A stretch of 64,000 nt of DNA from a virus (lineage: Duplodnaviria; Caudoviricetes): positions 1 to 64,000 of the IMG/VR virus record IMGVR_UViG_3300005673_000057. One strand, 5' to 3'. The translations under genes were made by a program, and so were the position numbers. This document shows positions 1 to 38,149 of this stretch, piece by piece. The notes under the pieces are model-generated. The model did not search any database and was not told the DNA's origin. It saw nothing but the letters and a program-made list of their open reading frames with translations. Position 1 is the first letter of the stretch. Every line of letters starts with the position of its first letter.

Positions 1-92
1 GCTAGAAACTGCCCAGCCGCCTCCCTGATCTTGGCCATGTCCTTCTTTTGATCGTCGGTCGGTAGCAGATATTCAAATACGGTCTTATGCAT
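1..92 (-). CDS. partial small protein, possibly Acb2/Tad1-like helical hairpin (truncated by window edge)
   Basis: ATG at 92 overlaps the stop of the upstream oxidoreductase; reads MHKTVFEYLLPTDDQKKDMAKIREAAGQFL; spacing resembles the Acb2 N-terminal helix. Confidence 0.35.
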   Translation of the reverse strand, partial: MHKTVFEYLLPTDDQKKDMAKIREAAGQFL

Positions 93-930: not shown

Positions 931-1202
931 TTCAGCAAATCCCTGAATGCAGTCCACTCAGCAATCATAAATTCTGCCACCTCTCTCATTTCGGCATTTG
1001 TTAAGTAGTGCTTGCCAAATTCTTTCTTGTCTTCATCGCTCCACCATCCAGGTAGGGGCCAGCTAACTCCACCGTCGTATCCCTCAGACACTACAAAACT
1101 ATTATCTTTATAGTCTCGCGATAGTCCCACTATGCCACAATGGGCATATAGCCTTTTGCCTGTACTAAGGATGTATTCGTCCCCTTCTTTATCAAAAATC
1201 AT
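921..1202 (-). CDS. hypothetical protein
   Basis: 93 aa ORF tightly overlapping both neighbours in the operon. Confidence 0.65.
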   Translation of the reverse strand: MIFDKEGDEYILSTGKRLYAHCGIVGLSRDYKDNSFVVSEGYDGGVSWPLPGWWSDEDKKEFGKHYLTNAEMREVAEFMIAEWTAFRDLLKCR

Positions 1203-1873
1203 GGCTCTAGCGGAAAGCCGCCCTCCACATTCTTCTTCAGGATCGTGACTGCCACACGGTTATTGTGGTCGATCACATCCTCTTCGGCATCATGTGACAT
1301 GAACCTCTGATGGTAAATGCTGTAGTGCGGGTGAGCGAGCCAGAGGCGTGAGTAGTCCATCTTGTAGGTACGCAGGGCCCGGTCATACTTGTAATTCTTG
1401 GAATGTGGATAATCCGGCTTGAAGTCGTAAACCACCAGATACCCATTATTATCCAGAATGCGATCACCCTCCCGCACGATCTGGAATAGCTCCTCCGGGT
1501 CACACTGGTAAAGGCAGAAGCCGTAGATCACCAAGTCAAAGCCGCCAGTCGGCAGGCCCTTCAGATTGGCAGCCTCACGAATGCCAATCTGCATGTTATT
1601 TGTGCCATAGGTCTGTACGCCATGACGAATGGCATCCTCCGATAGATCGCAGCCCCAGACCTTACAGCCCCAGTAGTCGCGCATGGCAGCCAGCCTGTAG
1701 CCATTGCCACAGCCTACCTCGAATACTTCTCTAGGCTCGATCCTGGCATCCACCAGCGCCCTAATGACAGGATCGCTGGTATAGACATTGACGCTATCGG
1801 AGAATTTGCGGTGATTACGCTCGTGCCACTCGTCCGCTTCCGACTGCATCCATCGCGTTGCTTGCAAGCCCAC
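1199..1873 (-). CDS. class I SAM-dependent methyltransferase (resembles Pse-locus-associated methylases)
   Basis: VFEVGCGNGYRL motif I, WGCDLS motif II, FDLVIYGFCLY, N-terminal EADEWHERN. Confidence 0.85.
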   Translation of the reverse strand: MGLQATRWMQSEADEWHERNHRKFSDSVNVYTSDPVIRALVDARIEPREVFEVGCGNGYRLAAMRDYWGCKVWGCDLSEDAIRHGVQTYGTNNMQIGIREAANLKGLPTGGFDLVIYGFCLYQCDPEELFQIVREGDRILDNNGYLVVYDFKPDYPHSKNYKYDRALRTYKMDYSRLWLAHPHYSIYHQRFMSHDAEEDVIDHNNRVAVTILKKNVEGGFPLEP

Positions 1874-2435
1874 GGCGCTGCCTCCCTATTTGGATTACCT
1901 CACTGCATGGAGTGTCCCACCCCCTAGACAAAAGGGGCCAGACTTCATTCAGGTCTCTCTTAAAGTGACGACTTCCTGCTCCAATCTGCGGCGTTGCAAT
2001 TAGCCCACCATTCCTGATTGATGGCCACATTCTTTGAAATAGACGTTCTGCTGCATCATGCAGTGCCATATACGAGCTATTTAGCGTCTCTCTCTCAGGG
2101 GAGGTAAATTCTACATTTGTCGTAGCAATGATCGGCCCAGTATCTACGCCCTCGTCTGGAACATAGTGGATGGATACGCCATGTGGCTCCTCATTGAGCC
2201 ATCCCCATAGATTGGGATTCGCCCCCCTGCCATACGGCAGAACGCTTGTATGTATATTGATGACGCCGCGTCGAAATACATCAATGACATCCTGTCGCAG
2301 GATATCGCGGTATCCATACATAACCGCAATCTCACACTGACCGGCATCTTCTATAAGATAGAAGACGCCGTCACCAGTATCTTTGATAGTCTTTTCGAGA
2401 TTCAGTCCATACGGACTCAAGAGGAGAACATTCAT
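1815..2435 (-). CDS. N-formyltransferase (Formyl_trans_N, sugar formyltransferase-like)
   Basis: INIHTSVLPYGRGANP catalytic motif, GVSIHY, DEGVDTGPII. Confidence 0.9.
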   Translation of the reverse strand: MNVLLLSPYGLNLEKTIKDTGDGVFYLIEDAGQCEIAVMYGYRDILRQDVIDVFRRGVINIHTSVLPYGRGANPNLWGWLNEEPHGVSIHYVPDEGVDTGPIIATTNVEFTSPERETLNSSYMALHDAAERLFQRMWPSIRNGGLIATPQIGAGSRHFKRDLNEVWPLLSRGWDTPCSEVIQIGRQRRGLASNAMDAVGSGRVARA

Positions 2436-3061: not shown

Positions 3062-4065
3062 TTTCCTTCCACTTTGTATAGTTTTCTCAATTCATCAGTC
3101 ATTTCTGGATGCCACTTATTGTGCGGCACATTGCGCACAAACTCGATGGAGCGAATGGCGGCATACTCCGCACGATACCCTAACTGGTGCTCGACTATCT
3201 CCCCCCATAGCACAACTGAGCCATAGGCTACGCCATTGCTATAGAATCTCTCATTGCCAAACTCTTGGATGCAATGAGACATATTCTTGAAGGCATAGAC
3301 ACCAAGGCCATCACGCAGATGGTTCTCACCAGCCTTCATTGGTTCGCCCGGAGCCCATGCACGATCTGCCGCCGTGCTCCACAGGAAGCCACTATTGTGA
3401 ATAGGCCAGCAACGGTAGGCGATGATCTCTCCCACTCTTATGCCCTCGTCCTTGATCTTCTTCTTTGGCTCTGGCGTGCCTGTGATGCTGTATCCACCAG
3501 CAACAGTGTTGCTCCAAAAGTATGGAGTGTATGTTGGATTCTGATATTGCATCATCTGCTGCGCTTGTAGCCGCGCCCGCTTCAGTAGCATTTGCTGGTA
3601 CGCGGCCTGTTGAGCACTATGCGAAGTTACGGAGCCTTGACTGGTTCCTCCGATGGCTCCGTAGTAGGGGTAGCTGGAACCGAAGACGGTGTTTCCGGCG
3701 TTGTTGATGGTGTATGTACCGGGCGCGGCAATACTGGTTCCTGTGGGCTGGCTTCCACTGGATGGTCCAGTGGCACTACCGTGTACTTTTTGATCGGTTC
3801 CCCGATGTATGCCATCTTTATCCTCCATTTTGTGTAACAGGTTGCCCTTACTGTCGTAAATTCTGATTATCTCACAGTCGAGAGTACAATCATAGTCAAC
3901 CACATATGATGTTGGCTCTCCACTAGGTCCGGCATAGCTAAATCGTTGACGTGCATCAATGTCGCTCCATCTATCTTGTGGTAACCAAACACCTGCAACA
4001 TGATCCGGCCGAGTCCATAAGACTTGGTTTTTATGGATAGCAAAGTCTGAGTCTTTGTAACTCAT
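3058..4065 (-). CDS. hypothetical protein with G/S/T- and Q-rich linker
   Basis: 335 aa ORF overlapping neighbours; low-complexity middle and globular-looking C-terminus (GEIIAYRCW...GLGVYAFK). Confidence 0.7.
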   Translation of the reverse strand: MSYKDSDFAIHKNQVLWTRPDHVAGVWLPQDRWSDIDARQRFSYAGPSGEPTSYVVDYDCTLDCEIIRIYDSKGNLLHKMEDKDGIHRGTDQKVHGSATGPSSGSQPTGTSIAAPGTYTINNAGNTVFGSSYPYYGAIGGTSQGSVTSHSAQQAAYQQMLLKRARLQAQQMMQYQNPTYTPYFWSNTVAGGYSITGTPEPKKKIKDEGIRVGEIIAYRCWPIHNSGFLWSTAADRAWAPGEPMKAGENHLRDGLGVYAFKNMSHCIQEFGNERFYSNGVAYGSVVLWGEIVEHQLGYRAEYAAIRSIEFVRNVPHNKWHPEMTDELRKLYKVEGK

Positions 4066-4574
4066 TATCGCATCTTCCCATAATAGACCGCATCGACTGG
4101 CTTATCGTCCAAGAGAAAGTGGTCCTTGCGGCCGCCATCAATCTTCATACCGGTCTTTGTGGCAACCTGCCGCATGGCCAAGTTAGGAGACATGCAGCCA
4201 CACTCGATCTTGCGTATCTTCAGTTCCTCAAAGCACCAGCGCATGACTTCAGCCCAAGCCTCGGTCGCATAGCCCTTACCCCATGCATCCCTTTCACCAA
4301 TCAGGATGCCCATATCGCCGACATCGTTCTCAGCGTCATATGTAACGCCAACGGTGCCGATATCACGACCATCCAGTTGGATTACCCAAAGGTGACCACA
4401 CAAGCCAAAATCAAACACATAATTAGTCTGACTGAGGCGGTCATGTTTGTGAAAGCGTTGCCCGCTGTATTTCACCACTTCAGGATCATTCAGCCAGTCA
4501 ACGTGTTGCTGCGTTACCCTCTCTGGCGTATAGGGCATCAGTACGAGACGCTCGGTCTTTAGCTCAGGCGTCAT
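4065..4574 (-). CDS. GNAT N-acetyltransferase (RimJ/RimL, PseH-like)
   Basis: LKTERLVL N-terminus, MGILIGERDAWGKGYATEA acetyl-CoA motif, NLAMRQVATKTG; start moved to Met at 4574. Confidence 0.9.
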   Translation of the reverse strand: MTPELKTERLVLMPYTPERVTQQHVDWLNDPEVVKYSGQRFHKHDRLSQTNYVFDFGLCGHLWVIQLDGRDIGTVGVTYDAENDVGDMGILIGERDAWGKGYATEAWAEVMRWCFEELKIRKIECGCMSPNLAMRQVATKTGMKIDGGRKDHFLLDDKPVDAVYYGKMR

Positions 4575-4755
4575 CGTCTGCCTTACGCCTCGGCGCTGGC
4601 ATCCGCTCCCTGATATGGCGGCATACCTCATACATCATTTCGCAGATCATGAGGATAGTGCCAGCTTCAGGACTGTAACCACCAAGCGGCCTGCGCTTGC
4701 TGATCTCAGTCATCAGCGTCTTTTCATATCGGTCTAACTGGTCGCGGCTGAGCAT
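4564..4755 (-). CDS. hypothetical protein
   Basis: 63 aa ORF overlapping the GNAT start. Confidence 0.55.
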   Translation of the reverse strand: MLSRDQLDRYEKTLMTEISKRRPLGGYSPEAGTILMICEMMYEVCRHIRERMPAPRRKADDDA

Positions 4756-9113: not shown

Positions 9114-9362
9114 ATGCGCGTTTATAATAAAAGAGAGAAGGGTGTTCCAACTGATGCAGTCTATGTTGGCCGCCCAACTAAGTGGGGAAATCCATTTGTC
9201 ATCGGCAAGGATGGCAATAGGGTTGAGGTGATTAAAAAGTACGAAAACTGGCTGCCAACATCTGGTCTGGATGTGAAGGAGTTGCGCGGAAAAAGTTTAG
9301 TATGCTGGTGCCACCCACAGGCTTGTCACGCCGATATCCTGTTGAAGGCAGCGAACGAATAA
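9114..9362 (+). CDS. DUF4326 family protein
   Basis: VYVGRPTKWGNPF...LRGKSLVCWCHPQACHADIL. Confidence 0.85.
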   Translation: MRVYNKREKGVPTDAVYVGRPTKWGNPFVIGKDGNRVEVIKKYENWLPTSGLDVKELRGKSLVCWCHPQACHADILLKAANE

Positions 9363-16966: not shown

Positions 16967-17881
16967 TTGCCCGTAGCTCTTTCAGCCATCCGTGATTTGT
17001 TGTTACCTGGCCTCTGGGGCATCAGTGGCCGATATCCCATGATCGAGCGGCAGTGGCCGAGCATCTTCAAGCAGACCGACTCGAACATGGCCTTGGAGCG
17101 CAGGACTGCGGTGCGCTTCCTTGGCTTTGCCCAGCTAAAGCAGGAAGGCGCTCCCACCTCGTTCGATAACGCGGCTGGTCAGCGCTATACCTACAATGCT
17201 GAGCACTTTGAGATTGGTCTTGGCTACGCGATCACCCGCAAGGCCATTGACGACAATCTCTACAAGAGCGAATTCGGCCCCTCCAACGACGGCCTTATGG
17301 AGTCGTTCAAGGAGACCGAGGAAATCTACGCCGCGAACGTCTTCAATACTGGCACGACTTATAATGCCAATATTGGTGGTGACGGCGTGGCACTGTTCTC
17401 GACGGCGCATCCTATCGACCAAGCGACCATTGCGAATGAGCCGAACCCGGAAGTCGATCTCAACGAGACTTCTCTGCTCAACGCCTGCACTACCATTCGC
17501 GGTACGTGGCTTGATAACGCCGGTCTCAAAATCCATGCGCGTGGCCGCAAGCTGATCGTTCCTTACCAGCTTGAGCCCATCGCGATCCGACTGTTCCGCT
17601 CCGAGCTTCGGCCCGGTACGTCGCAAAACGATGTCAACGCGGTCATGCACATGAATGAAAGTCTTAAGGAAGGCTTCATGGTGTGGGATTATCTCACTTC
17701 GGCTTACGCATGGTTTGTGCTCACGAATCATGAAGGGTTGATCTTCTTCAACCGCAAGCCGTTTGAGACGGACATGAGCGTTGAATTCACCACTGATAAC
17801 CTGCTGGTAAAGGGATATCAGCGTTATGTTCCTACCTACTACGATTGGAGGGCATGTTGGGGCACCTTCCCTGTCGCCTAG
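16967..17881 (+). CDS. major capsid protein
   Basis: AGGAGG SD, TTG start, strongly biased codons, LLPGLW, GLGYAITR, GDGVALFSTAHP, AWFVLT motifs. Confidence 0.85.
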   Translation: MPVALSAIRDLLLPGLWGISGRYPMIERQWPSIFKQTDSNMALERRTAVRFLGFAQLKQEGAPTSFDNAAGQRYTYNAEHFEIGLGYAITRKAIDDNLYKSEFGPSNDGLMESFKETEEIYAANVFNTGTTYNANIGGDGVALFSTAHPIDQATIANEPNPEVDLNETSLLNACTTIRGTWLDNAGLKIHARGRKLIVPYQLEPIAIRLFRSELRPGTSQNDVNAVMHMNESLKEGFMVWDYLTSAYAWFVLTNHEGLIFFNRKPFETDMSVEFTTDNLLVKGYQRYVPTYYDWRACWGTFPVA

Positions 17882-17952: not shown

Positions 17953-18465
17953 GTGAGCCTGACACAAGAGAGACTGATGCAATTGCTGGACTACAACAAG
18001 GAGACGGGTGAATTCCGCCGCAAGGTGCAGGCGGGGGCATATGACCGTTTTCCGGTTGGGGGCCTTGCTGGTTGGCTTAATAAAGAAGGATATCGGTATA
18101 TCCGAATTGATGGACGGGTATACCGCGCATCTCGTTTGGCCTATCTCTATGTAACTGGCTTATGGCCAGTCGAGCAGATTGATCACAAGAATTGTGATAC
18201 ATCAGATGATCGTTGGGATAATCTTCGCCCGGCGTCTCAGTCCCAGAACAAACGAAATAACCGCCTGCGCAAAGATAGCAGCACTGGCTACAAGTGCGTG
18301 GTGTACGACAAGGCTCGTGACAAGTATCGCTGGCAGGTAGTCGTGGACGGGAAGCGCCGCAAGTCTGGCAAGCGATTTGACACCGCCGCTGAAGCCTTTG
18401 CTGACTATCAAGCCCGGCTCCCCGAATTCCATGGTGAATTCGCTAACGATGGAGGCCCTGTCTAA
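17953..18465 (+). CDS. HNH-AP2 homing endonuclease
   Basis: RASRLAY, IDHKNCDTSDDRWDNLRPAS, KYRWQV...FHGEFA. Confidence 0.9.
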   Translation: MSLTQERLMQLLDYNKETGEFRRKVQAGAYDRFPVGGLAGWLNKEGYRYIRIDGRVYRASRLAYLYVTGLWPVEQIDHKNCDTSDDRWDNLRPASQSQNKRNNRLRKDSSTGYKCVVYDKARDKYRWQVVVDGKRRKSGKRFDTAAEAFADYQARLPEFHGEFANDGGPV

Positions 18466-19466
18466 TGGGTATCACTGCTCTTTCTGGGCCATTCCTCCAG
18501 TATGGAATCACGACCACTGGTTCCACTGATGGTCTGACCGGCCGAGATGTGGAATATAACGATCAGCGTGCTCCCATGCTTGCCGATCTTGGCAATGCCA
18601 TGTTGGACCCGCGCACCTTTTACACTTATGCGCCTGGCGGCGCGGTAACCAACAAGGTCTACGGCTTCTACGGCGGCGTTGGCTACGTTGATTATCTGCC
18701 GCTTGCAGCGTCTTCGATTTCTATCGTCAATGACACTGGTAGCTCTGGAGATAGTGAGTTTACGCTTGTCACTGCCTCTTCGGCTCTTGGCACGTATTCC
18801 ACGACTTTGATCGCTCCCGAGAGCGGGGTGACGCTCACCAGTGTCCTGACTTTGGATAGCTCTGACGACTCGTACATGGTCAACGCCTTCGGGCAGACTG
18901 CTACGGTCAATACTTGGGCCCCTGGTGGTGGTGCTGGTCGCTGCATTGCGGTATATACTGCTAGCTATAGTGATAGCCCTGTCACGGTAGAAGGCCGGGA
19001 TATCTATGGCTATAAGATCAGCGAAAAGATCGACATTAGTTCGAATGGTTCTGTAACCTCGTCATTCGGTGGCATTGGTCAGAAAGCATTCAAGTACATT
19101 CTCGGGGTCTATAATAGCTCTGCCCCGACTAGCACTGGCATTAAGGTCGGCACGACTAATCGGTTTGGCTTCCCGATGTATGTCCCATATTATGGGATGA
19201 ATATCAGCGTCCAAGTCGCTTCGGTCGCCACGATCAGCAATGCGCTAGTACCGCTGACTTCGGCCAACGCCATTCTTGGCTTGGCTTCGACGGCTACGGC
19301 TAACTCTACCAATGCGGACGTGCGCGGCATTTATATTTCATCTGTCACGGCAGATGGTATATATCGCCTTCAAATGCGCGTCACTCCTGCGGCTTCGGCT
19401 GTTGTTACGATCTCTGCAACCAATGTGGCTCCGCTCTTTGGTGCTACGCAGTACAGCAGCTTCTGA
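18465..19466 (+). CDS. Ser/Thr-rich virion structural protein
   Basis: in structural operon, beta-strand-like S/T/G/A-rich sequence. Confidence 0.65.
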   Translation: MGITALSGPFLQYGITTTGSTDGLTGRDVEYNDQRAPMLADLGNAMLDPRTFYTYAPGGAVTNKVYGFYGGVGYVDYLPLAASSISIVNDTGSSGDSEFTLVTASSALGTYSTTLIAPESGVTLTSVLTLDSSDDSYMVNAFGQTATVNTWAPGGGAGRCIAVYTASYSDSPVTVEGRDIYGYKISEKIDISSNGSVTSSFGGIGQKAFKYILGVYNSSAPTSTGIKVGTTNRFGFPMYVPYYGMNISVQVASVATISNALVPLTSANAILGLASTATANSTNADVRGIYISSVTADGIYRLQMRVTPAASAVVTISATNVAPLFGATQYSSF

Positions 19467-19675: not shown

Positions 19676-20314
19676 ATGCAGCCTATCGTTGTTACGAAGA
19701 ATCTTAGTGCGGCATCTTCGGCTGGTATCGGCACATTCTCGTCAGCGGAAACCTCAGTAACGGTGAATTCCTCTTCGCTTGGGACTGCTAGGCGCATTGT
19801 TGTCTGGGGTTCTACAAGTGTAGCTACGACTTTCACCATTGTTGGCACGAATGGTGTTGGTCTTCCCATCTCGGAGGTTATAACTGGCTCTTCCGTTGGT
19901 GCGGCCGTAGCAACCACTCAGGACTTTCTTACAGTGACTTCTGTCACTCTTGGTGCGGTTGTGGCCAGTACGGCTGGTTACGTTGGGACCAACACTCAGG
20001 GCGGCACCCAATGGCAGATTATAGATACATGGCGCAACCCAATTAATGTTGGGTTCAATGTTACCCCAACCAGCACCTCTGTTGTGGCAAGCTTGGAATA
20101 TACGATGGACTACCCATCGTATAGTACGGCATCTAAGTGGGCTGGCCAGAATCCAAATTCAGGGCCAGTAGCCGTGGTCTCTACTGCCTGCTCATCGGTT
20201 ACTTCTGCTACCAACGGCAGCATTTCTTTCCCTTTTGCTGCTTGGAGGGTTACCCTTACGAGCACGTCGTCGGGGGCTGGGTCGGTTAATGCCACAATTG
20301 TCCAAAGTGGGTGA
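19676..20314 (+). CDS. Ser/Thr-rich virion structural protein
   Basis: very high S/T content, in structural operon. Confidence 0.65.
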   Translation: MQPIVVTKNLSAASSAGIGTFSSAETSVTVNSSSLGTARRIVVWGSTSVATTFTIVGTNGVGLPISEVITGSSVGAAVATTQDFLTVTSVTLGAVVASTAGYVGTNTQGGTQWQIIDTWRNPINVGFNVTPTSTSVVASLEYTMDYPSYSTASKWAGQNPNSGPVAVVSTACSSVTSATNGSISFPFAAWRVTLTSTSSGAGSVNATIVQSG

Positions 20315-20380: not shown

Positions 20381-21238
20381 ATGGGCAAGCTCACCCCCAC
20401 ATTCAAAGACCAACAGGCCGCCGCCAATGGCGGCATTCACGTTATCCCTCCCCATGAGCCGCTCCCCGGCGAAGTGTGGGTCTCCTCTCCTGGAGAGGTC
20501 CTAGGCAAGAAACCAGAGGTGGAGGTGGTGGCAGAGCCAGCCCCACTTAAGGTTGCTTTAATTGGCACCGCGCCCTCCAGCCGCATGCTGGCTCCATTTA
20601 ATGATCCTTCATGGCAAATCTGGGCGTGCTCGCCGGGTAATCAGGGCCAGCTACCGCGTGTGGATATCTGGTTTGAGCTTCACGGCAATCTGCTCTGGCC
20701 AGAGAATATCTCCTACGGGGCTCCCTATCTGGAGTGGCTCAAGACCCTGACTATCCCTGTGATGATGCAGGACAATAAGCTGGTGCCGAATGCTACGCCA
20801 TTCCCGATGAGGGAGATGGTGGATAAGTTCGGGCCCGACTTCTTCACCTCCAGCTTTGCGTGGATGATGGCCCTAGCCATTGACCGTGGGGCCAAAGAGA
20901 TTGCCCTATTTGGCATAGATATGGCGTCGCGTGAGGAATATATTCTTCAGAGGCCGGGCTTCTATTATTTCAAGTATCGGGCTGAGCAACTCGGGATTAA
21001 GGTGTGGGCCCCGAATGAATCTGATATTATGCAGTCGCCGGGGCTGTATGGATTCTCGGAGGTTACGCCGTTTGGCCGCAAGGTCTTGACGCGGAAGAAG
21101 GAGCTTCAGGATCGCGTCAATGCTGCCAAGCAGCAAATTGCTCAGTTGCAACATACAGTTACATATTTAGATGGTGCCCTCGAAGATATCGACTACGTGA
21201 GTCAAATCTGGGGTGGAGTGCAGAGACATGAAACCTAA
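20381..21238 (+). CDS. CstII (GT42)/Maf-DUF115-like glycosyltransferase-fold protein
   Basis: KVALIGTAPSS and FTSSFAWMMALAIDRGAKEIALFGIDM parallel CstII KVIIAGNGPS and ITSGVYMCAVAIALGYKEIYLSGIDF (recalled from memory, not searched). Confidence 0.6.
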   Translation: MGKLTPTFKDQQAAANGGIHVIPPHEPLPGEVWVSSPGEVLGKKPEVEVVAEPAPLKVALIGTAPSSRMLAPFNDPSWQIWACSPGNQGQLPRVDIWFELHGNLLWPENISYGAPYLEWLKTLTIPVMMQDNKLVPNATPFPMREMVDKFGPDFFTSSFAWMMALAIDRGAKEIALFGIDMASREEYILQRPGFYYFKYRAEQLGIKVWAPNESDIMQSPGLYGFSEVTPFGRKVLTRKKELQDRVNAAKQQIAQLQHTVTYLDGALEDIDYVSQIWGGVQRHET

Positions 21239-21377: not shown

Positions 21378-22961
21378 ATGTCACTAACCGTTACACATCC
21401 ATTTGTTAGTCTGATTGCAGATAGCGGCAATACGTCGCTGGTGCAGCCGTCTGACTGGAATGACGATCATACTGTAGTTGGCGATGCTACTGCCACGACT
21501 GGCTATGTGTTGGTCGGTCAGGGGGCTGGTAGTGCGCCGATCTGGTCCTCCAGCTTCCCCAGCATTATCACATTCCCAGATGGCGCAGTCGGCGCTCCCG
21601 GCATTGCATTTACCAATCAAACCACGACTGGCTTTTATCGTATTGGCTCTGGCAATGTTGGCCTTAGTCTTGCTGGCACTCTTTACTACAACTTCAATAC
21701 TACGTCATTTTCCCCTGGAGCGAACGATCAGTTTTCTCTTGGTGTAAGCGGGACCGCGTTCGCTGATCTTTTTCTCGCTACTGGCGCGGTCATAAATTTT
21801 GGCGCTGGTAATTATGTTTTAACGCATTCTGCCGGGAATCTAGTTGCTACTGGGGGACCATTTACTGCCCCATCATTTATTCCATCTAGCTCGACGGTCC
21901 CGACGAATGGGATGTATTTGCCAGCGGCAAATACCATTGGCTGGGCCATTAATAGCACTGCTGAATTGCAACTGACTGCAAGCGCCTTGGCTCCTTCAAC
22001 TACGGCTGGGCTAGATCTAGGAACAACATCCTTATTTTTTGGAACTGGGCACATAAATGCCATTTTAGCAGATGGTTCTGCTGGCAGAACTTGGCAGATA
22101 AATAGAGCCACAACTGGGGCTGGTCAGCAGCTTATTATCAGCGCTGGTGGGGCGCAATCTGGCGCTACTGACACAGCAGGCGGCGGATTACGACTTCGTG
22201 TCGGCGTTTCGACTGGCACGGCAAATACCGCTACCGCAGCCATTCAGCTTTACAAGCCGGGCGCGTCTGGTTCGTCCGACAACTCGATCTACAATGCGAT
22301 CCTGTGTGCCTATACCGCCATCAATATGTCGGCGAACGACAACGCGACGGCATGGCAGTTCAACGAGGCGGTCAACGGGAACGCAAGGTTTTATCTGAAT
22401 ATCATCCCGGTCGGCGCCGTCAATACGTCCGCAGGCTACTTCACCTTCTATGACAACTACGGTGACGGCTCGACCGGCTCTGCCAAGCAGGGCTATCAGC
22501 AGATCAATGGCATCGCCACCATCATCGGTGGCATGAAAAGGGTATCGTCGGATTTTGCCAAGACTTCTGATACCACATTGGCCAATATTACTGGGCTATC
22601 GATTAATGCTGCTGCCAGTAGGACCTATTTATTCGAGGCCATCCTTTATACAACCTCAAATGTGGCCGGTGGCGTCAAATTTGCTATTGCGGGCACAGCC
22701 ACTGCAACATCAATTGTTTATCAAGCCGTACTTTGGGATGGAGTTGGGACGGCAACGGCAGTTGGAACATCTAGGGCAGCAGCTTTGGCGACAACCGTTG
22801 GTGATGTTACGGCGGTAACTACCGCGTATGTGAGAATAACTGGGACAATTACAGTGAATGCTGCGGGTACGTTAACGGTACAGTTTGCTCAGAATGCAAG
22901 CAATGGTGCCGCCTCTACGGTTCTGCGTGGTTCAACCTTTAATGTTTGGGAAGTAGTATAA
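21378..22961 (+). CDS. tail fibre/tail spike protein
   Basis: SLVQPSDWNDDH N-terminus, DGAVGAPGIAF repeat-type motif, G/A/T/S-rich beta sequence. Confidence 0.7.
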   Translation: MSLTVTHPFVSLIADSGNTSLVQPSDWNDDHTVVGDATATTGYVLVGQGAGSAPIWSSSFPSIITFPDGAVGAPGIAFTNQTTTGFYRIGSGNVGLSLAGTLYYNFNTTSFSPGANDQFSLGVSGTAFADLFLATGAVINFGAGNYVLTHSAGNLVATGGPFTAPSFIPSSSTVPTNGMYLPAANTIGWAINSTAELQLTASALAPSTTAGLDLGTTSLFFGTGHINAILADGSAGRTWQINRATTGAGQQLIISAGGAQSGATDTAGGGLRLRVGVSTGTANTATAAIQLYKPGASGSSDNSIYNAILCAYTAINMSANDNATAWQFNEAVNGNARFYLNIIPVGAVNTSAGYFTFYDNYGDGSTGSAKQGYQQINGIATIIGGMKRVSSDFAKTSDTTLANITGLSINAAASRTYLFEAILYTTSNVAGGVKFAIAGTATATSIVYQAVLWDGVGTATAVGTSRAAALATTVGDVTAVTTAYVRITGTITVNAAGTLTVQFAQNASNGAASTVLRGSTFNVWEVV

Positions 22962-24816: not shown

Positions 24817-25512
24817 GTGGTTGTAAATACTTCTAAATCATACGAATTTAACCCATCTTTGGGCGAGATGACGCTTGAGGCTTTTTCTCGTATCGGCATT
24901 CGTCCGTCAGAAGTGACCACGCAGCATATGTACCACGCCCGTCAGTCGGCTAACCTTGTGCTGTCTGAGTGGTCCGTACTCCAGCCAAACCTCTGGGAGG
25001 TTGGTCTTCAGTCTGCGCCCCTTATTGAGGGCAGTGCGACATATAGCGTTCCAGCCGAAACTGTGATGATTCTTGATGCTTATATTTCAACTGGCCTGAC
25101 GGGCGACCAGCAGGATCGCTATATCATACCGATTTCACGCACGGAGTATGCTTCCTATCCGAATAAGGAGCAGCAGGGCTTCCCGACTGTTTATTGGTTC
25201 GACCGCTTGATTTCCCCGACGTTTACTCTGTGGCCAGTGCCAGATGGCAATGGGCCGTATGTCCTGAATTACTATAGTGTGCGACAAACTCAAGATGCCG
25301 TCCTTGCCGGTGGCAAGACCATAGAGATTCCATATCGTTTTCTTGATGCATTTGCGGCGGCGCTGGCATGGCGTCTATCCGAAAAATATGCTCCTCAACT
25401 TGAGCAAGCCATGATGGCCAAGATGGAACGTAGTTGGCGTATTGCGTCTACCAATGACACAGAAAATGTGAATCTCTATATCGGCCCGATGCTTGGCGGA
25501 TACTATAGATGA
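24817..25512 (+). CDS. head-tail adaptor/tail tubular protein A-like
   Basis: NLVLSEW...NLW, ISRTEYASYPNK, PTVYWFDR, LWPVPD pattern typical of podoviral adaptors. Confidence 0.55.
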   Translation: MVVNTSKSYEFNPSLGEMTLEAFSRIGIRPSEVTTQHMYHARQSANLVLSEWSVLQPNLWEVGLQSAPLIEGSATYSVPAETVMILDAYISTGLTGDQQDRYIIPISRTEYASYPNKEQQGFPTVYWFDRLISPTFTLWPVPDGNGPYVLNYYSVRQTQDAVLAGGKTIEIPYRFLDAFAAALAWRLSEKYAPQLEQAMMAKMERSWRIASTNDTENVNLYIGPMLGGYYR

Positions 25513-26297
25513 GCTTCCGCCCGCAAGGCCGCTTTACAGTTGACCCTACCAGCCCAAGGGCGCGCGGGGCATGCGACCGTTGCGGAGCACACTATCAGCT
25601 AGATCAGCTAAAGTGGCAGTTTCAGTACGCTGGCGCGCGACTTCAAAATTTGCGCATTCTCGTGTGCCGGTCCTGCATGGATGTGCCACAGGCGCAGTTG
25701 AAGGCCATCATCCTTCCGGCCGATCCGTTGCCGGTAATGAACCCGCGCCCAGAAAACTATGTGCAAGATAACAATCCAATTTCTGGAATTGGGCAGAATG
25801 CCAATCCAGCGCTTGCTGGCACTAATATTGGTACACTGACATGGGGTGGCGGGACTTATTCTGCCTTTGACGGCAACACCAACAAGCCATTCCAGTTTTG
25901 TGCGTATATTGGTGTCTCTGGGAGCAGCTATGGGAATTGGGTTGGGAAAAATTGGGCGGCCGATCCTTCAGGGGTTAGCACTCCTTCGGACCTGACGGAA
26001 TCCACTCTCTCGTACACAGCCAATGGCTTCACTGTAACTGCGCCGAATGACACCACATTTTTGGTTGGGTCCACGGCCGCAGTAACTTATCGCTTCCAAG
26101 GATCGTCTGACGCCAGCACATGGACGACGCTATACACCAGTGCTACGTCTGGTGCTGTTGGTCAGGAGATCACGGTCGATAGTCTTTCTGGTACAAACTA
26201 CCAGTACCACCGCATCGACTTTGTTGGCGATGGCTCTAGGGCGATTGCCGTAGCGCAATTGGAGATCAATGTAAGCGATGGAGGGGCCAATGCTTGA
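25509..26297 (+). CDS. virion protein with N-terminal CxxC...CxxC and C-terminal discoidin-like domain
   Basis: CDRCG...VCRSCMD; SAFDGN...FQGSSDASTWT...YQYHRI. Confidence 0.55.
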   Translation: MSFRPQGRFTVDPTSPRARGACDRCGAHYQLDQLKWQFQYAGARLQNLRILVCRSCMDVPQAQLKAIILPADPLPVMNPRPENYVQDNNPISGIGQNANPALAGTNIGTLTWGGGTYSAFDGNTNKPFQFCAYIGVSGSSYGNWVGKNWAADPSGVSTPSDLTESTLSYTANGFTVTAPNDTTFLVGSTAAVTYRFQGSSDASTWTTLYTSATSGAVGQEITVDSLSGTNYQYHRIDFVGDGSRAIAVAQLEINVSDGGANA

Positions 26298-26496
26298 AGA
26301 TTGGTCTCTTTGGCTTTTTTGGTTTCTTGGGGCGTTTGGCTCATTTTTGGCTATTGAGCTTACCCGGTTTTTTACTGGCGGGACTACTCTTACTGGAGTA
26401 GTTAGATCAATCTCACAGCGCTATCCGTGGACGATAGGTGGCATCTTGGCGGCCACTATTGTTTTGTTTGGGCATTTCTTTTTAGGGTGGCTGTAA
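26290..26496 (+). CDS. small membrane protein
   Basis: two hydrophobic segments; GGAGG SD. Confidence 0.55.
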   Translation: MLEDWSLWLFWFLGAFGSFLAIELTRFFTGGTTLTGVVRSISQRYPWTIGGILAATIVLFGHFFLGWL

Positions 26497-26497
26497 A

Positions 26498-27214
26498 ATG
26501 TCTCTTACATATACCACGTATGTGGATCAGATCGCCAACCTGCTCGTGATTGGCTCTACTGACTCCAATTTCCTGACGATGCTGCCGGGCATGATTGACT
26601 ATGCCGAGGGCAGGATTTATCGCGAGCTAGACCTTCTGGCAACGTCCGTCACCTTTTCATCGCAAGCGCTAACGGCAAATAGCAGGACGTTAGCGCTATC
26701 GACGGCATATGGAAATCTTGTGCCGGACAATATCAATGTTATCACGCCTGCTACTGCCACCTCCATCAGCGGCACTCGCGTGCCTTTAGTGGCGACTACG
26801 CCAGATGTGATTGACGCCATTTGGGGTAAGAACAATTCCAATACTGGGACGCCGCAATTCTGGGCCTTTCAAGACAATGACACGATCATTGTGGGGCCAT
26901 CTCCGGATGCTGCGTATCCGGTGGAGGTGCGTGCTATTCAGCAAAATCCAACGCCATTATCGTCTACCAACACAACGACGATTTTGACGGAGATGCTGCC
27001 AGACTTGTTTATTGCGGCATCCATGGTTTTCGGGTCGGCATATCAGCGTGACTTCTCTGCGCAGGGGGATAATCCGGCACAGGGCATGTCATGGGAGAAG
27101 ACTTATCAGGACTTGAAACAATCTGCTGAGTTCATGGAACTTCGGAAAAAGTACCAAGGTCAGGGTTGGACCGCAGACCAACCTAGCAATGTAACGTCGC
27201 CGCCGAGGGTCTAG
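26498..27214 (+). CDS. tail/neck structural protein
   Basis: YAEGRIYRELD, GTPQFWA, IVGPSPDAAY, LFIAASM pattern seen in podoviral neck proteins. Confidence 0.55.
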   Translation: MSLTYTTYVDQIANLLVIGSTDSNFLTMLPGMIDYAEGRIYRELDLLATSVTFSSQALTANSRTLALSTAYGNLVPDNINVITPATATSISGTRVPLVATTPDVIDAIWGKNNSNTGTPQFWAFQDNDTIIVGPSPDAAYPVEVRAIQQNPTPLSSTNTTTILTEMLPDLFIAASMVFGSAYQRDFSAQGDNPAQGMSWEKTYQDLKQSAEFMELRKKYQGQGWTADQPSNVTSPPRV

Positions 27215-27218
27215 CATC

Positions 27219-29273
27219 GTGCCGATGCAGAGCGTACAGCTTCGTCCCGGTGTGAACGTCGAAAGGACTCTTTCGGCGAACGAGGCTGGCGTCTCACAAT
27301 CTCAGCTTATTCGCTACAAGGATCAGATGATCCAGACGTATGGTGGATGGTCGCAGTATGTGCCATTCACCGTGCCGTCAACCGTGCGCGCCTTGCATGC
27401 ATGGCAAGATGCCGCAGGGGATACCCACTTGGGTGTTGGCGCTACTGCCAATCTGGCAGTCATCACCAATGGCTCCAATGCCGACATTACGCCGCAGACG
27501 GCAACTATCGACTCATCGGCAGACTTCAGCACTACAAACGGGTCTCAGACGGTCACTGTCTCGATCCCGAACAGTAGCGGCTATCCATCTGTTTACAGTA
27601 CCGTGTTTTTCAATACTCCGGTGAGCATTGCCGGGCAGATCATCAGTGGTGCTTATGACATTGTGAGCGTGCTTAGCACGATCTCGTTTACAATCAGCCT
27701 GACCGACGCCGCTACTGCGACTTCCACAACTCGCACATTGCCGACTTTCACTTCAACGGCAAATAGCGCCACTATCTTTGTGGACTTCACCGACAATAAC
27801 TATCAGTCAGTGACTGGTCTATTTTATCCATTCTATGCTGCAACGACACTGACTTCCAATCAGATTGTGGAGGGACCGTACCAAGTATCATCCATCATTG
27901 ATTCGACAAGGTTTACTATCAACGCGGTAGCTCAAACTACTGCGTCAGTGGGCCCCATTACCATGAATAGTTCATTGGTGCAGGCCAAGTTTTATGTGGC
28001 CATTGGCCCTGCCGCCAACAATGTCGGATATGGATCAGGTGGTTATGGATCAGGTGGTTATGGCGGCGTTGTTACTGGCGCTACTCCAGTAGCTGGGACG
28101 GCGATTACTGCTACTGATTGGACAATGGATAACTGGGGTCAGGTGTTGATGGCATGCCCAGAAGGCGGCCCGATCTACACATGGTCGCCAGACAGTGCAT
28201 TGCAGACGGCTCAAGTTATCAGTGAGGCCCCATTCTTCAATGGTGGAATCTTCATTTCCATGCCGCAGCAGATTCTGGTGGCGTGGCGCTCTTGCCAGCT
28301 AAATCCAGACAGGACTACAGGGGGCTGGTTGGCGCAGGATAATCTCTTGGTGGTGTGGTCAGATGCCGAAGACTATACCAATTGGGAGCCGACGAATGCT
28401 ACGGCTGCTGGCTCATTCCGCATTCCAACCGGCTCAATCATTATGGGTGGCTTGCAGGCCGCCACTCAGGGCATCATTTGGACTGACGTTGATGCATGGA
28501 ACATGCAGTATGTCGGTGGTGATGTTATCTTCAGTTTCAATCGTCTAGGCTCAGGCTGTGGTCTGATTGGGAAGCATGCCGCAGGCACGCTAAGCGGCAC
28601 TGTGTATTGGTGCGGCACAAGCAACTTCTTTACCTTGGGAAGCAGGGGTGTCGAGCCAATCAATTGCTCGGTCTGGGATTTCATTTTCCAGAATCTCAAC
28701 ACGACGTATCAATCCAAGATTGTTTGCGCCACGAATACGGCCTTCAACGAGGTCATGTGGCTCTTCCCATCGGCTACCAGCACTGGCGAGAATGACTCGT
28801 ATGTGAAGTTGAATGTGCTGGAGAATGCGTGGGATTATGGGGTTATGTCCCGCACGGCATGGTTTGACGTGAGCGTGCTTGGCAATCCTATCGGTGTGGA
28901 TACCAATGGTACGATCTACCAGCACGAGACAGGCACATCGCTAACCGGGGTTACTTCTCCGAACTTCAGGACCGGCTGGTGGTCCATTGCTGACGGCAAC
29001 GAGATATCCTTTGTGGATTGGGTGCTGCCGGACTTTATCTGGGGCACTTATTCTGGGACCAAGGATGCGTCACTGACAATGACTTTCTACACCGTGGATT
29101 ATCCGGGTGATACACCACGGACCTATGGCCCCTATACAGTTACGTCGGCAACGGAGTATATTAACCTCCGTGCTAGGGGCAGGCTAATGTCTGTACTGAT
29201 TACGTCAGGGAATCCGCAGTTTTTCCGGCTGGGCCGGGTGCGGTTTCGTTGGGCATCTTCGGGGCGAAGATAA
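27219..29273 (+). CDS. tail nozzle/DNA stabilization protein (P22 gp10/T7 gp12-like)
   Basis: large beta-rich protein upstream of ejection genes; WTMDNWGQ, WSDAED, GCGLIG, FNEVMWLFP. Confidence 0.65.
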   Translation: MPMQSVQLRPGVNVERTLSANEAGVSQSQLIRYKDQMIQTYGGWSQYVPFTVPSTVRALHAWQDAAGDTHLGVGATANLAVITNGSNADITPQTATIDSSADFSTTNGSQTVTVSIPNSSGYPSVYSTVFFNTPVSIAGQIISGAYDIVSVLSTISFTISLTDAATATSTTRTLPTFTSTANSATIFVDFTDNNYQSVTGLFYPFYAATTLTSNQIVEGPYQVSSIIDSTRFTINAVAQTTASVGPITMNSSLVQAKFYVAIGPAANNVGYGSGGYGSGGYGGVVTGATPVAGTAITATDWTMDNWGQVLMACPEGGPIYTWSPDSALQTAQVISEAPFFNGGIFISMPQQILVAWRSCQLNPDRTTGGWLAQDNLLVVWSDAEDYTNWEPTNATAAGSFRIPTGSIIMGGLQAATQGIIWTDVDAWNMQYVGGDVIFSFNRLGSGCGLIGKHAAGTLSGTVYWCGTSNFFTLGSRGVEPINCSVWDFIFQNLNTTYQSKIVCATNTAFNEVMWLFPSATSTGENDSYVKLNVLENAWDYGVMSRTAWFDVSVLGNPIGVDTNGTIYQHETGTSLTGVTSPNFRTGWWSIADGNEISFVDWVLPDFIWGTYSGTKDASLTMTFYTVDYPGDTPRTYGPYTVTSATEYINLRARGRLMSVLITSGNPQFFRLGRVRFRWASSGRR
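28029..28063 (+). repeat. 15-bp tandem repeat encoding YGSGG
   Basis: TATGGATCAGGTGGT x2 followed by TATGG. Confidence 0.8.
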
Positions 29274-29501: not shown

Positions 29502-31385
29502 ATGCCATTGATCAAGTCTGGATCGAAAAAGGCGGTATCGTCCAATATCCGGCAATTAAAAAGTGAAAAATATCCACAGAAGCAGGCGATAGCAATCGCG
29601 CTCGATGTAGCTCGGCGCGCTCGCCGCAAGGCAGGTGGCGGTGCGGTTGATGAACTTGTGCCGCCGCCACGCACGCCAACGCAGATGCCGGAGGAGTGGA
29701 ATGAGGCTGTGCGCAGTGCCGCTGGCCGCATCGCCAATACACTTGCAGCGCCGGGTCGCGCCATGCAGGGTGGCTATTCTGTCAAGCCAACTGTGCCTGG
29801 ATTATGGAGCGAGGAGGACGAATTTAGGCAGCAACATGCCCAACGTCAGCAAGCTGAGGATGCTGCCGCCCTTGCGCTGGATGTGGCGCAAGCCCGCTTC
29901 CCATTTGCCAAGTCTGGTGAGTCAGGTGTCTTTGGCGGGAAGCTGAAGCAGCCGGGTATTAAGGCTTACCACGGCAGCCCGCATGACTTCGACCGCTTCG
30001 ACATGAGCAAGATCGGCACGGGGGAGGGCGCGCAGGCATACGGACATGGGCTGTATTTTGCGGAGAATCCCAAGGTTGCCGGTGAATACCGCTCTAGGCT
30101 CGCTCCCGGTGTCGAGATGCAGGTCGGCGGCCAGCCGTTTAATGCTGATGATCCGGTCCATCTAGCGTCGTCATACCTGCATATGTTTGAGAGGCGAGGG
30201 AAATCGAGAGAGGATATTGCCCGCATTCTTCGAGAAGAAACGCCGTATAGCACAGGCGCGCACGAACAGGCGGCGCAGCTTATTCTCGGCGGCAAGGAAC
30301 TCCCGAAATACGGGCAGCGTGAAGCCGGCCGCATGTACGAGGTCAACATCAACGCCCATCCCGATCAGTTCATTGACTGGGATGCGCCGCTCTCAAAGCA
30401 ACCGAAGCTCGAACAGACCATGCGCCGCATTGGCGCTGATCCGACAGGCCCAGGCTTTGAAGGTCCACTAACCGGCGCGGAAGGCTATCGCGCACTGCAA
30501 AACAAATACTTCCTCGACCAGATCGCCGGGCGCGGAACCAACATCCACCCCGACGAGGTGAACGCTATCGGCACTCAGGCTGTCGGCAAGATGGCGCAAG
30601 AGGGCATCCCCGGCATCAAGTACCTAGACCAAGGCTCCCGCAATATCGGGGCAAATCCGGCCTATGCCGAACGGCTCCAATCCCAGTTGGATGAGGCGTT
30701 AAAAGCTGGGAACAGCAAAAAAGCCAGCTTGATTCAGGACGAACTAAATTCCTTGCGGACGAAGGAAACGCGCAACTACGTCGTGTTCGACGACAAGCTA
30801 ATTGATATACTGAGGAAATATGGGGTTGCATCAGTCGCTGCGCTCCCGCCTGCCGTACAGGCGTCTTTAGGGCTACTACAGGAGGGGGAAGTGAAAAAGG
30901 CAGATGGTGGCGCTGCGATGCGGCGCACAATGCAATATGCCAAGGGCGGCGCTCCACGGGTGCCCGGCCCTAGCTTCTTCCAGAGGGATGCCAATCGTGC
31001 TCTGTCGCGTCAAAGTGGCCTTATCAAGTCGGTGGTGCCGGGCAGGACTGACAAGCACCCCATGCGGGTGGCCAGTGGCAGTTACGTGATTCCGGCCGAT
31101 GTGGTTAGCCATCTGGGGCAGAATAACACGCTTGCGGGTGCGAAGTTCCTGAAGCGCAAGTTTGGTGGCGGTGGCGCTATCCAGTTTGCCAATGGCGGCG
31201 AGGTGCCGGTTCCGGTGGATATCATAGCCGCAGGTGGTGAATTCGTGCTCAGTCCTGAGCAGGTAGCTGCGGTCGGTAAGGGGGACTTAAAGAAGGGGCA
31301 TAACGCACTGGATAAGATGGTTCTGGATACCAGAAAGCATCATATCAAGACGTTGCGTAAATTGGCTCCTCCCAAGAGGTCTTAA
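29502..31385 (+). CDS. ejection/internal virion protein with ART-PolyVal-like ADP-ribosyltransferase domain
   Basis: AYHGSPHDFDRFDMSKIGTGEGAQAYGHGLYFAEN...NYVVFDD; C-terminal GRTD...GSYVIPADVV...GGEFV segment. Confidence 0.7.
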   Translation: MPLIKSGSKKAVSSNIRQLKSEKYPQKQAIAIALDVARRARRKAGGGAVDELVPPPRTPTQMPEEWNEAVRSAAGRIANTLAAPGRAMQGGYSVKPTVPGLWSEEDEFRQQHAQRQQAEDAAALALDVAQARFPFAKSGESGVFGGKLKQPGIKAYHGSPHDFDRFDMSKIGTGEGAQAYGHGLYFAENPKVAGEYRSRLAPGVEMQVGGQPFNADDPVHLASSYLHMFERRGKSREDIARILREETPYSTGAHEQAAQLILGGKELPKYGQREAGRMYEVNINAHPDQFIDWDAPLSKQPKLEQTMRRIGADPTGPGFEGPLTGAEGYRALQNKYFLDQIAGRGTNIHPDEVNAIGTQAVGKMAQEGIPGIKYLDQGSRNIGANPAYAERLQSQLDEALKAGNSKKASLIQDELNSLRTKETRNYVVFDDKLIDILRKYGVASVAALPPAVQASLGLLQEGEVKKADGGAAMRRTMQYAKGGAPRVPGPSFFQRDANRALSRQSGLIKSVVPGRTDKHPMRVASGSYVIPADVVSHLGQNNTLAGAKFLKRKFGGGGAIQFANGGEVPVPVDIIAAGGEFVLSPEQVAAVGKGDLKKGHNALDKMVLDTRKHHIKTLRKLAPPKRS

Positions 31386-31903
31386 TGACAACTACACCTT
31401 CGATTGTACGCATAGCTGGGCCCTCTGACCGCCGAGAGATTTGGCGTCTGTTTTTACAGGGCCATAAAGAGAATGGATTATTTGAACTGGACCCGCATCG
31501 CGTTGACTGGTGGATTACCAGAATGGTGCAGCCAGAAACCATTCCGCCATGGGACACGGGGCCACGCGGCACGATAGGGGTTATTGGGCAGGTGGGGAAC
31601 CTGGAGGCTCTGGCATTTCTGACCATTGGGGGCTTCTGGTACTCCAGCACGAGGCATTTGGAGGAAATGATCGTGTACGTGGACCCAGAATGCCGAAAGT
31701 CTGGTCATTCAAAGGCTCTTATTGAGTGGATGAAGCAACAGAGCGTAGAAACAGGATTGCCACTATTAACTGGCATCATTTCTACTACTAGAACAGAGGC
31801 TAAATGTAGGCTATACGGAAGGCTGTTACCGAAGGTGGGCGAGTTCTTTTTCTTTAATGGCAAGGGCAGCGTACTGGGGTCTAGTGTAGCTATTACAGCC
31901 TAG
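31385..31903 (+). CDS. GNAT-fold acetyltransferase (ejection module)
   Basis: IVYVDPECRKSGHSKALIEW acetyl-CoA motif. Confidence 0.7.
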   Translation: MTTTPSIVRIAGPSDRREIWRLFLQGHKENGLFELDPHRVDWWITRMVQPETIPPWDTGPRGTIGVIGQVGNLEALAFLTIGGFWYSSTRHLEEMIVYVDPECRKSGHSKALIEWMKQQSVETGLPLLTGIISTTRTEAKCRLYGRLLPKVGEFFFFNGKGSVLGSSVAITA

Positions 31904-37922: not shown

Positions 37923-38149
37923 TCGAATATGTGGTCTTTTTTGTATTTCTGATCCTACAAGGTGCTCCAAAGCCCCTGACATTCGAGCATAAATTCGATA
38001 CTCTAGACGAGTGCCTCTTTGAGGTCAGGGAGATTTTGAAGCGCCCTCCCAACGATGTTACGACCAAGGGGGGTGTGCTACAGGCTGGTTGTGCGATAAA
38101 GATGGAGCCAGCGGTGAAGGGGGAAGCTACCGATGGCAAACTACCGTAG
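37919..38149 (+). CDS. small exported/membrane protein
   Basis: hydrophobic N-terminus, F.TLDEC...C pattern. Confidence 0.6.
   Translation: MIEYVVFFVFLILQGAPKPLTFEHKFDTLDECLFEVREILKRPPNDVTTKGGVLQAGCAIKMEPAVKGEATDGKLP

Follow-up and report, generated by a model that had tools for sequence, protein, structure and literature searches.

A small GT42/Maf-like protein encoded in a phage virion module is a candidate nonulosonate transferase

A gene whose product resembles sugar transferases, lying among the structural genes of a tailed phage, raises the question of which sugar it would transfer and to what. The gene is open reading frame (ORF) 20381..21238 on the plus strand of IMG/VR record IMGVR_UViG_3300005673_000057, a complete phage genome of 75,040 bp with a 23-bp end overlap, of which bases 1-64000 form the stretch analysed here (the window). 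It encodes a protein of 285 amino acids (aa) from an ATG start that has a GAGGG ribosome-binding site 8 nt upstream and is backed by homologues with the same N-terminus, MGKLTPTF; a promoter and terminator scan around the gene gave sites not above the level of shuffled sequence. An earlier note on this DNA had proposed the product as a candidate nonulosonic acid transferase with which the phage may glycosylate its own particle, and that reading is supported as far as computation allows. Both motifs quoted from the ORF are present in the protein (KVALIGTAPSS spans residues 57-67, TSSFAWMMALAIDRGAKEIALFGIDM residues 156-181), and the segment quoted from the sialyltransferase CstII, TSGVYMCAVAIALGYKEIYLSGIDF, occurs letter for letter in CstII chains (1ro7_A, 131-155). 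The motif resemblance to CstII is not significant by itself; the fold and profile comparisons are. We conclude that the ORF product is probably a transferase of nonulosonates activated with cytidine monophosphate (CMP).

Searches of Pfam, PHROGs and NCBIfam with the ORF protein gave no match, and sequence searches of the PDB with the protein, the family alignment and the motif region (phmmer) returned nothing significant. We built an AlphaFold2 model on 32 homologues, with a predicted local distance difference test score (pLDDT) of 80.7, which comprises a disordered N-terminus (residues 1-55), a GT42/Maf-like alpha/beta domain (56-220) and a long conserved C-terminal helix (230-278). In Foldseek the first ten ranks were occupied by CstII and Cst-I chains (E 8e-6 to 2e-4), CstII being first with a probability of 1.00, and lower ranks by the Pasteurella multocida sialyltransferase, MptE-type 6-hydroxymethyl-7,8-dihydropterin pyrophosphokinase (HPPK), thiamin pyrophosphokinases, GT29 sialyltransferases and Maf. 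The structure comparison with VIA-align, which is independent of Foldseek, was made in two looks and placed the flagellin glycosyltransferase Maf (5mu5) at Z 11.6 in the first and 11.2 in the second, with a root-mean-square deviation (rmsd) of 2.9-3.1 over 152-154 residues. CstII reached Z 11.2 (148 residues, rmsd 3.1, 22% identity) and Cst-I Z 10.9; the three GT42 enzymes, including that of P. multocida, ranged over Z 10.5-11.2, and GT29 enzymes over Z 6-7. Residues 52-219 of the model superpose on Maf, CstII and Cst-I, with unrelated Rossmann-like folds at about Z 6 or below. The model contains the seven-stranded parallel alpha/beta nucleotide-binding domain, superposable on CstII and Maf, that marks the GT42/Maf/MptE-like fold superfamily, and the best structural matches are the enzymes with which the earlier note had compared it, GT42 and Maf.

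The likeness to Maf is also seen in profile-profile comparison. A profile of 44 family members, aligned by hhalign to 21 Maf-type PF01973 domains from alphaproteobacterial genomes, gave probabilities of 91.7% in local mode (E 7.8e-7) and 93.5% in global mode (E 3.6e-8), against 0.1-0.2% for unrelated control alignments. The alignment pairs GTAPSS with GsGPS, the WFExH region with PDfh...E and GVDM with G.D; that of the family with one single phage PF01973 protein was uninformative (0.3%). PF01973 itself weakly matches orthologues of the ORF in two relatives (E ~1e-3), and the best PDB matches of the family profile are GT42 enzymes at the motif TS..A.AI...L.G.D...Y, at E-values that are not significant (0.7-3). 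From these comparisons the ORF protein is predicted to be a remote homologue of the Maf/PF01973 proteins, outside that family by Pfam's own threshold. The GxGPS-type loop and the central GxD of Maf are present as G62-T-A-P-S-S67 and G178-I-D180. In a weak HMMER alignment, Y187 falls at the tyrosine that follows the GID motif in the P. multocida enzyme, which we take to be the counterpart of CstII Tyr162. As Chiu et al. are said to have reported in 2004, CstII has a catalytic His188 and binds phosphate through Tyr156 and Tyr162.

The family around this protein is very large, with 4,159 representatives at 50% identity (E up to 1e-3), all unnamed and viral wherever the taxon is known. The closest relatives of the ORF protein are 75-85% identical to it, and more than 850 clusters (90% identity) lie within 60-85% identity. 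Deposited phages gave a single match in 50,697 records, in Microcystis phage Mvi-Yong1342-1, where the gene is annotated as a methyltransferase, and only three contigs of metagenome-assembled genomes (MAGs) carried the family among 185,579 species genomes. Members usually measure 225-300 aa; residues 57-282 make up the conserved core, and the first 55, disordered in the model, are specific to the clade of this phage. Seven residues (G62, P72, H101, A166, G178, E186 and Y223) are invariant in 44 members that are 32-51% identical, H101 in the WFExH motif being the sole invariant histidine of the family, and a further seven (E99, S157, D180, Y187, Q190, P211 and S214) are kept in at least 90% of them. 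The putative nucleotide-binding residues are found in these two sets, G62 and G178 in the first and S157 and D180 in the second, and are therefore conserved among homologues.

The likely donor is indicated by gene fusions and by the genes that accompany the family. Nine distinct clusters (90% identity) of 475-513 aa join an SpsF-type cytidylyltransferase (CTP_transf_3) to the family domain, and in other proteins this type of cytidylyltransferase is joined to NeuB, PseG-like, DegT, GNAT or Gfo domains. Within the 75-kb clade, all 11 of the 11 complete relatives have a cytidylyltransferase-aminotransferase fusion together with a PseB-like dehydratase. On a second backbone, defined by a TerL of phrog_979 and a T7-like portal of phrog_332, family members are 38-45% identical to the ORF protein; CTP_transf_3 is present in 13 of its 15 genomes with a completeness of 90% or more and lies 6-11 kb from the family gene where positions were worked out. 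A NeuB-type synthase was found in 24 of 26 near-complete genomes bearing the family, and the two genomes without the synthase are the same two that lack the cytidylyltransferase. Two synthases were scored, at 386 and 379 bits against a cut-off of 340 for the PseI equivalog, and one phage also has a methylase associated with pseudaminic acid (Pse) and the WbuX/WbuZ acetamidino enzymes, above or near their cut-offs. The base rate is low, a PseI-like gene occurring in 2 of the 50,697 deposited phage records; a scan of viral contigs for PseI phages yielded 11 loci, mostly fragments. Co-occurrence with Pse genes in related phages, which the earlier note had put forward as a check, was thus found on two unrelated backbones and is accompanied by the cytidylyltransferase fusions. 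Together, the fusions, the co-occurrence on two backbones and the synthase scores point to a putative CMP-activated nonulosonate donor of the pseudaminic acid type, and we infer the same donor for this phage.

Three observations on family members stand apart from this argument. Two short PseI-bearing viral contigs (records L150 and L151) encode a distant member each, at G040:C1:171-827 and G041:C1:3571-4215, and each of these has one in-frame TAG, which could be due to a pseudogene, a sequencing error or stop-codon recoding. In a metagenomic protein of 504 aa (P0245), an N-terminal region with a weak match to PhyH-like dioxygenases (E 1.4e-3) takes the place of the cytidylyltransferase domain. 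A 54.6-kb phage (G026) encodes both a family member and a separate canonical PF01973 protein, MptE/Maf-like, of 295 aa (51 bits); the latter's gene (L159, G026:16496-19975, ORF 1201-2088 on the minus strand) has Ser/Thr/Ala-rich ORFs on both flanks, and a viral-contig scan for relatives of this protein returned itself only.

With respect to the acceptor, the gene neighbourhood was examined. The ORF does sit among structural genes, as had been claimed, with TerL, portal, head and tail genes around it (S+T, combined fraction of Ser and Thr):

6280-7938: TerL, structural module
9302-11875: SU10-like portal, structural module
16967..17881 (+): major head protein (phrog_371, E 9e-11), which anchors the position of the ORF in the virion module
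17953-18465: HNH homing endonuclease, between the head-protein gene and the gene of the 333-aa Ser/Thr-rich protein
18465..19466 (+): 333-aa Ser/Thr-rich protein (S+T 0.23), separated from the preceding capsid gene by the HNH insertion; candidate for an acceptor or decoration protein
19676..20314 (+): 212-aa protein (S+T 0.32) modelled as an all-beta double sandwich, upstream neighbour; candidate acceptor and capsid-surface protein
20381..21238 (+): candidate CMP-pseudaminic-acid (nonulosonate) transferase, from fold, hhalign match to Maf, conserved motifs, fusions and co-occurrence
21378..22961 (+): 527-aa unannotated protein (S+T 0.22), downstream neighbour; probable virion or fibre protein, possible acceptor
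24817-29273: virion structural proteins
31385-31903 (+): acetyltransferase-like ORF (phrog_1249, E 1.6e-8)
36574-37560: tail fibre
38133-39209: tail lysozyme

The neighbours have S+T values of 0.22-0.32 compared with 0.09-0.13 for the enzyme, TerL, portal and capsid proteins, in agreement with the Ser/Thr-rich virion-region proteins described previously. In the 75-kb clade a few genes separate the family gene from the capsid gene before it, and small Ser/Thr-rich beta proteins (clusters 3, 6, 7, 8 and 20; S+T 0.22-0.30) are encoded around it. In the other lineage, 43 loci have a gene for a Ser/Thr-rich protein of ~150 aa (cluster 2, S+T 0.26) immediately upstream, and the enzyme gene is followed by TerL and portal. 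In the diverse lineage, 76% of loci have an upstream gene whose S+T is 0.20 or more, compared with 17% of all same-strand genes. Homologues of 19676..20314 (cluster 7) recur between the capsid and enzyme genes of related phages. The model of this protein (pLDDT 77) has two beta-sandwich domains, and its BFVD matches are all phage proteins without characterisation. A weak likeness was seen to the cement protein of Helicobacter pylori phage KHP40 (Z 9.0) and to Ena spore appendages (Z 9.6), both barely above the noise level of the tool. Homologues of 18465..19466, of 317-349 aa, directly follow a 304-aa capsid gene in many related loci; the protein had no PHROG, NCBIfam or PDB sequence match, and the capsid protein had no PDB sequence match. 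Virion proteins are plausible acceptors, a proposal that we judge to be evenly balanced. Farther downstream, the acetyltransferase-like ORF 31385-31903 sits between genes for large putative ejection or internal virion proteins, which is an odd site for an enzyme gene.

The sugar operon of this phage is on the minus strand and runs across the record ends:

genome 69041-70189 (-): PseC-like
genome 70186-70812 (-): HNH
genome 71653-72525 (-): PseB-like (273 bits)
genome 72876-74945 (-; L002:8879-10945): fusion of CTP_transf_3 and a class-III aminotransferase, 689 aa
85..957 (-): Gfo/Idh/MocA sugar oxidoreductase, adjoining the PseF-aminotransferase fusion across the record end
1199..1873 (-): S-adenosylmethionine-dependent methyltransferase (PF13649, E 2e-11) with a weak likeness to the Pse-associated methylase (TIGR03587, E 1.6e-6)
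1815..2435 (-): sugar N-formyltransferase-like (PF00551, E 7e-17; best NCBIfam matches are ArnA-type and deoxythymidine diphosphate (dTDP)-4-amino-4,6-dideoxyglucose formyltransferases)
2432-3061 (-): 208-aa HNH-like ORF with the look of an HNH/AP2-type homing endonuclease
3058-4065 (-): 334-aa hypothetical protein
4065..4631 (-): GNAT N-acetyltransferase (PF13302, E 1e-23) with a weak PseH likeness (TIGR03585, E 2e-3)

The earlier note had described a sugar-tailoring block at 85-4574. An oxidoreductase, a methyltransferase, a formyltransferase and a GNAT enzyme are indeed encoded on the minus strand in 85-4631; the HNH-like ORF and the hypothetical among them are not sugar enzymes. The tailoring genes are the part of the block that lies in the window, and the PseB-like, PseC-like and PseF-aminotransferase genes lie outside it. 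PseI is carried by all 11 complete clade relatives that were searched, and in one of them (G006, L144) it directly follows PseC. Tblastn with the PseI of relatives (E up to 10) found no remnant in the present genome. Here PseC is followed by an HNH_3-like ORF (68830-69252, -) and then by an oppositely oriented serine recombinase/resolvase (67628-68188, +; PF00239, E 9e-48), which suggests that PseI has been replaced by mobile DNA. ORFs 3058-4065 and 2432-3061 were considered as a hidden PseI or PseG and rejected, as their sequences look like an ordinary phage hypothetical and a homing endonuclease; the 334-aa ORF gave nothing in NCBIfam, ESM Atlas or a viral-contig scan for relatives. When metagenomes were scanned for close kin of the PseC encoded here, only distant matches (30-38% identity) came back.

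Two features of the operon deserve mention in their own right. The 689-aa protein combines its SpsF-type cytidylyltransferase with an aminotransferase resembling GSA-aminomutase; this ~680-aa architecture, which has no obvious role in nonulosonate synthesis, is common in metagenomes and in bacterial contigs of more than 1 Mb. HNH-type homing endonuclease genes break up both the capsid module (17953-18465) and the sugar operon (2432-3061 and genome 70186-70812).

Taken as a whole, the explanation that we favour slightly is a minimal transferase of GT42/Maf type that uses a CMP-activated donor of the pseudaminic type and has Ser/Thr-rich virion proteins as acceptors. The ORF product would be a metal-independent glycosyltransferase with a GT-A-variant fold, belonging to the GT42/Maf (DUF115) superfamily and acting on a CMP-activated, pseudaminic-acid-type nonulosonate. 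The phage would provide most of the route to this donor through its PseB-, PseC- and PseH-like enzymes, its tailoring enzymes and a PseF-type cytidylyltransferase, and the host would supply PseG and PseI. Late in infection the enzyme would act in the manner of Maf on flagellin and attach the sugar to hydroxyl groups of Ser and Thr in Ser/Thr-rich surface proteins of the phage itself, the adjoining beta-sandwich proteins encoded between the capsid gene and the tail genes being the likeliest acceptors, and the released particle would bear an acidic sugar coat. We infer that the acceptors are proteins rather than glycans and that the virion is the target.

Several observations weigh against this explanation. 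Pfam hmmscan left PF01973 unmatched for the ORF protein (E up to 10) as well as for 44 members (E up to 1). No counterpart of CstII His188 could be mapped in the ORF protein, and the lid region of CstII is apparently shorter here, about 39 residues against about 66 (counted from the GID motif to where the aligned domain ends, and estimated solely from aligned ranges). The related loci lack phylogenetic independence, and the flanks in the 75-kb clade, 70-76% of which are Ser/Thr-rich, have to be set against a structural-module background that is already 39%. Neither PseI nor PseG is present in this genome, so this phage must use PseG and PseI of its host or have an incomplete pathway, which is the main caveat for the window. 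Two complete phages and the Microcystis phage carry the family gene without Pse genes, and the ~50-kb phages carry it just upstream of TerL and not among the capsid genes. These last two points would also suit a CMP-nonulosonate transferase that acts on a structure of the host, either sugars of lipopolysaccharide or capsule or else flagellin or pilin, and remodels its surface, for example to block superinfection or to keep progeny from re-adsorbing: members in phages without Pse genes would need a donor pool of the host, and the nearest enzymes of solved structure have lipooligosaccharide (CstII, Cst-I and the P. multocida sialyltransferase) or flagellin (Maf) as their acceptor. We consider a host acceptor unlikely. 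The late virion-module place beside Ser/Thr-rich phage proteins is kept in two unrelated backbones, and the family, confined to the three MAG contigs among species genomes, is nearly absent from them, unlike a lysogenic-conversion gene; no membrane anchor or signal sequence was identified, in analyses that included no dedicated test for these.

The fold also leaves room for an enzyme that is not a glycosyltransferase. The HPPK of the archaeon Methanocaldococcus jannaschii (8sd5), which is MptE-type, superposes on the model with Z 10.1-10.3 and thiamin pyrophosphokinases with Z 8-9.7, no more than about 1 Z unit below the transferases. Since MptE comes so close in score, the chemistry cannot be read from the fold by itself, and the modelled structure does not separate a transferase from a pyrophosphokinase. 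In addition, the nearest named ESM Atlas cluster has MptE-like PF01973 on 16% of its members (score 0.80), which is a lead only. A pyrophosphokinase resembling MptE or the thiamin enzymes, or another nucleotide-dependent small-molecule enzyme, possibly for a non-canonical step of the sugar pathway, is nevertheless improbable. GT42 enzymes have a Foldseek E-value at least 100-fold better, structure-based identity is 22% to CstII compared with 12-13% to the pyrophosphokinases, the profile-profile match is to bacterial Maf proteins, and the fusion partner and co-occurring genes are specific to CMP-nonulosonate synthesis; we know of no Pse or legionaminic acid pathway that employs such a kinase. 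Sugar hypermodification of phage DNA against restriction is the least probable of the readings considered. To our knowledge, no DNA glycosyltransferase has CMP-ulosonic donors or this fold, and the genomes assembled normally from shotgun data. Adjacency to terminase genes in the ~50-kb phages and the Microcystis phage would be in keeping with a DNA acceptor, and phage glycosyltransferases that hypermodify DNA exist, according to the portion of PMC12619734 that cites Pyle et al. (2024). DNA modification was set aside because the genome contains no thymidylate-synthase-like (ThyA-like) hydroxymethylase for hydroxymethylcytosine or hydroxymethyluracil.

Compared with known systems, the proposed transferase is closest to two enzyme groups. 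The Maf proteins, flagellin nonulosonic-acid O-glycosyltransferases of PF01973/DUF115 (5MU5, from Magnetospirillum magneticum), are the best or joint-best match to its central domain over about 153 residues, and both share GxxPS and GxD motifs, association with genes for pseudaminic or legionaminic acid and nearby Ser/Thr-rich candidate acceptors. Bacterial Maf proteins are, however, about 650-1,200 aa long and have helical domains at both termini for the binding of flagellin or chaperone, and reading frames that we sampled measured 680-1,360 aa; the ORF protein lacks such flanking helical domains and with its 285 aa consists of a catalytic core and one long C-terminal helix. The phage has no flagellin either, and its presumed acceptors are phage proteins. 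The GT42 enzymes (CstII 1RO7, Cst-I 2P2V and P. multocida sialyltransferase 9C08) are of similar size, have a single-domain GT-A-variant fold and show the highest structure-based identity (about 22%). Their motif TS(G/S)...A.AI...(K)EI.L.GID is nearly in register with the ORF, and their donor is a CMP-nonulosonate. They differ in that they sialylate sugars of lipooligosaccharide and use His188 under a lid subdomain, which looks shorter in the ORF, and HMMER (phmmer, and hmmsearch against the PDB) and Pfam gave no significant sequence similarity to GT42 (PF06002). The MptE-type HPPK (8SD5), which is in PF01973 together with Maf, and the thiamin pyrophosphokinases have the same alpha/beta nucleotide-binding fold as the ORF, but are ATP-dependent small-molecule kinases of folate and thiamin metabolism, whereas the gene context of the ORF has no pointer to pterin or thiamin.

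For virions, the nearest parallel is found in mycobacteriophages, which reportedly use other glycosyltransferase families; the phage studied here, by contrast, brings a CMP-nonulosonate pathway and an enzyme of Maf/GT42 fold. As described in those parts of PMC12619734 and PMC12801897 that cite Freeman et al. (2023, Cell Host Microbe 31:1216), mycobacteriophage glycosyltransferases modify capsid and tail proteins and, as here, are phage-encoded near structural genes. Glycosylation of virions is not known to be established for any other tailed phages. Neither Maf-like enzymes encoded by phages nor Pse pathways of phages were described in any paper that our literature search found.

A broader view, which we hold tentatively and rate just short of probable, is that several large uncultured tailed-phage lineages make derivatives of pseudaminic acid and use them to O-glycosylate proteins of their own capsid surface or fibres, through a hitherto unrecognised, phage-specific minimal branch of the Maf/GT42 enzymes. 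Sugars of this kind affect motility, immune recognition and phage adsorption, and the same sugar on phage particles would be a new kind of virion modification. If the view is correct, these would be the first nonulosonic-acid-coated phage virions, and Maf-like enzymes would gain a new class of acceptor. Such a coat could plausibly influence the charge, stability and aggregation of the particle, its sticking to cell debris or mucus, the way in which host defences or animal immunity recognise it, and its mimicry of host surfaces. A viral family of very large size that lacks annotation (about 4,159 clusters at 50% identity) would also gain a function, and its compact core of ~230 residues would offer a pseudaminyltransferase scaffold for glyco-engineering.

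Outside the virion module and the sugar operon, the early region encodes a YAcAr/SLOG-family domain protein (genome 64901-65401, -; L002:904-1401; PF10686, E 4e-16), SLOG domains being linked to nucleotide signalling and counter-defence.

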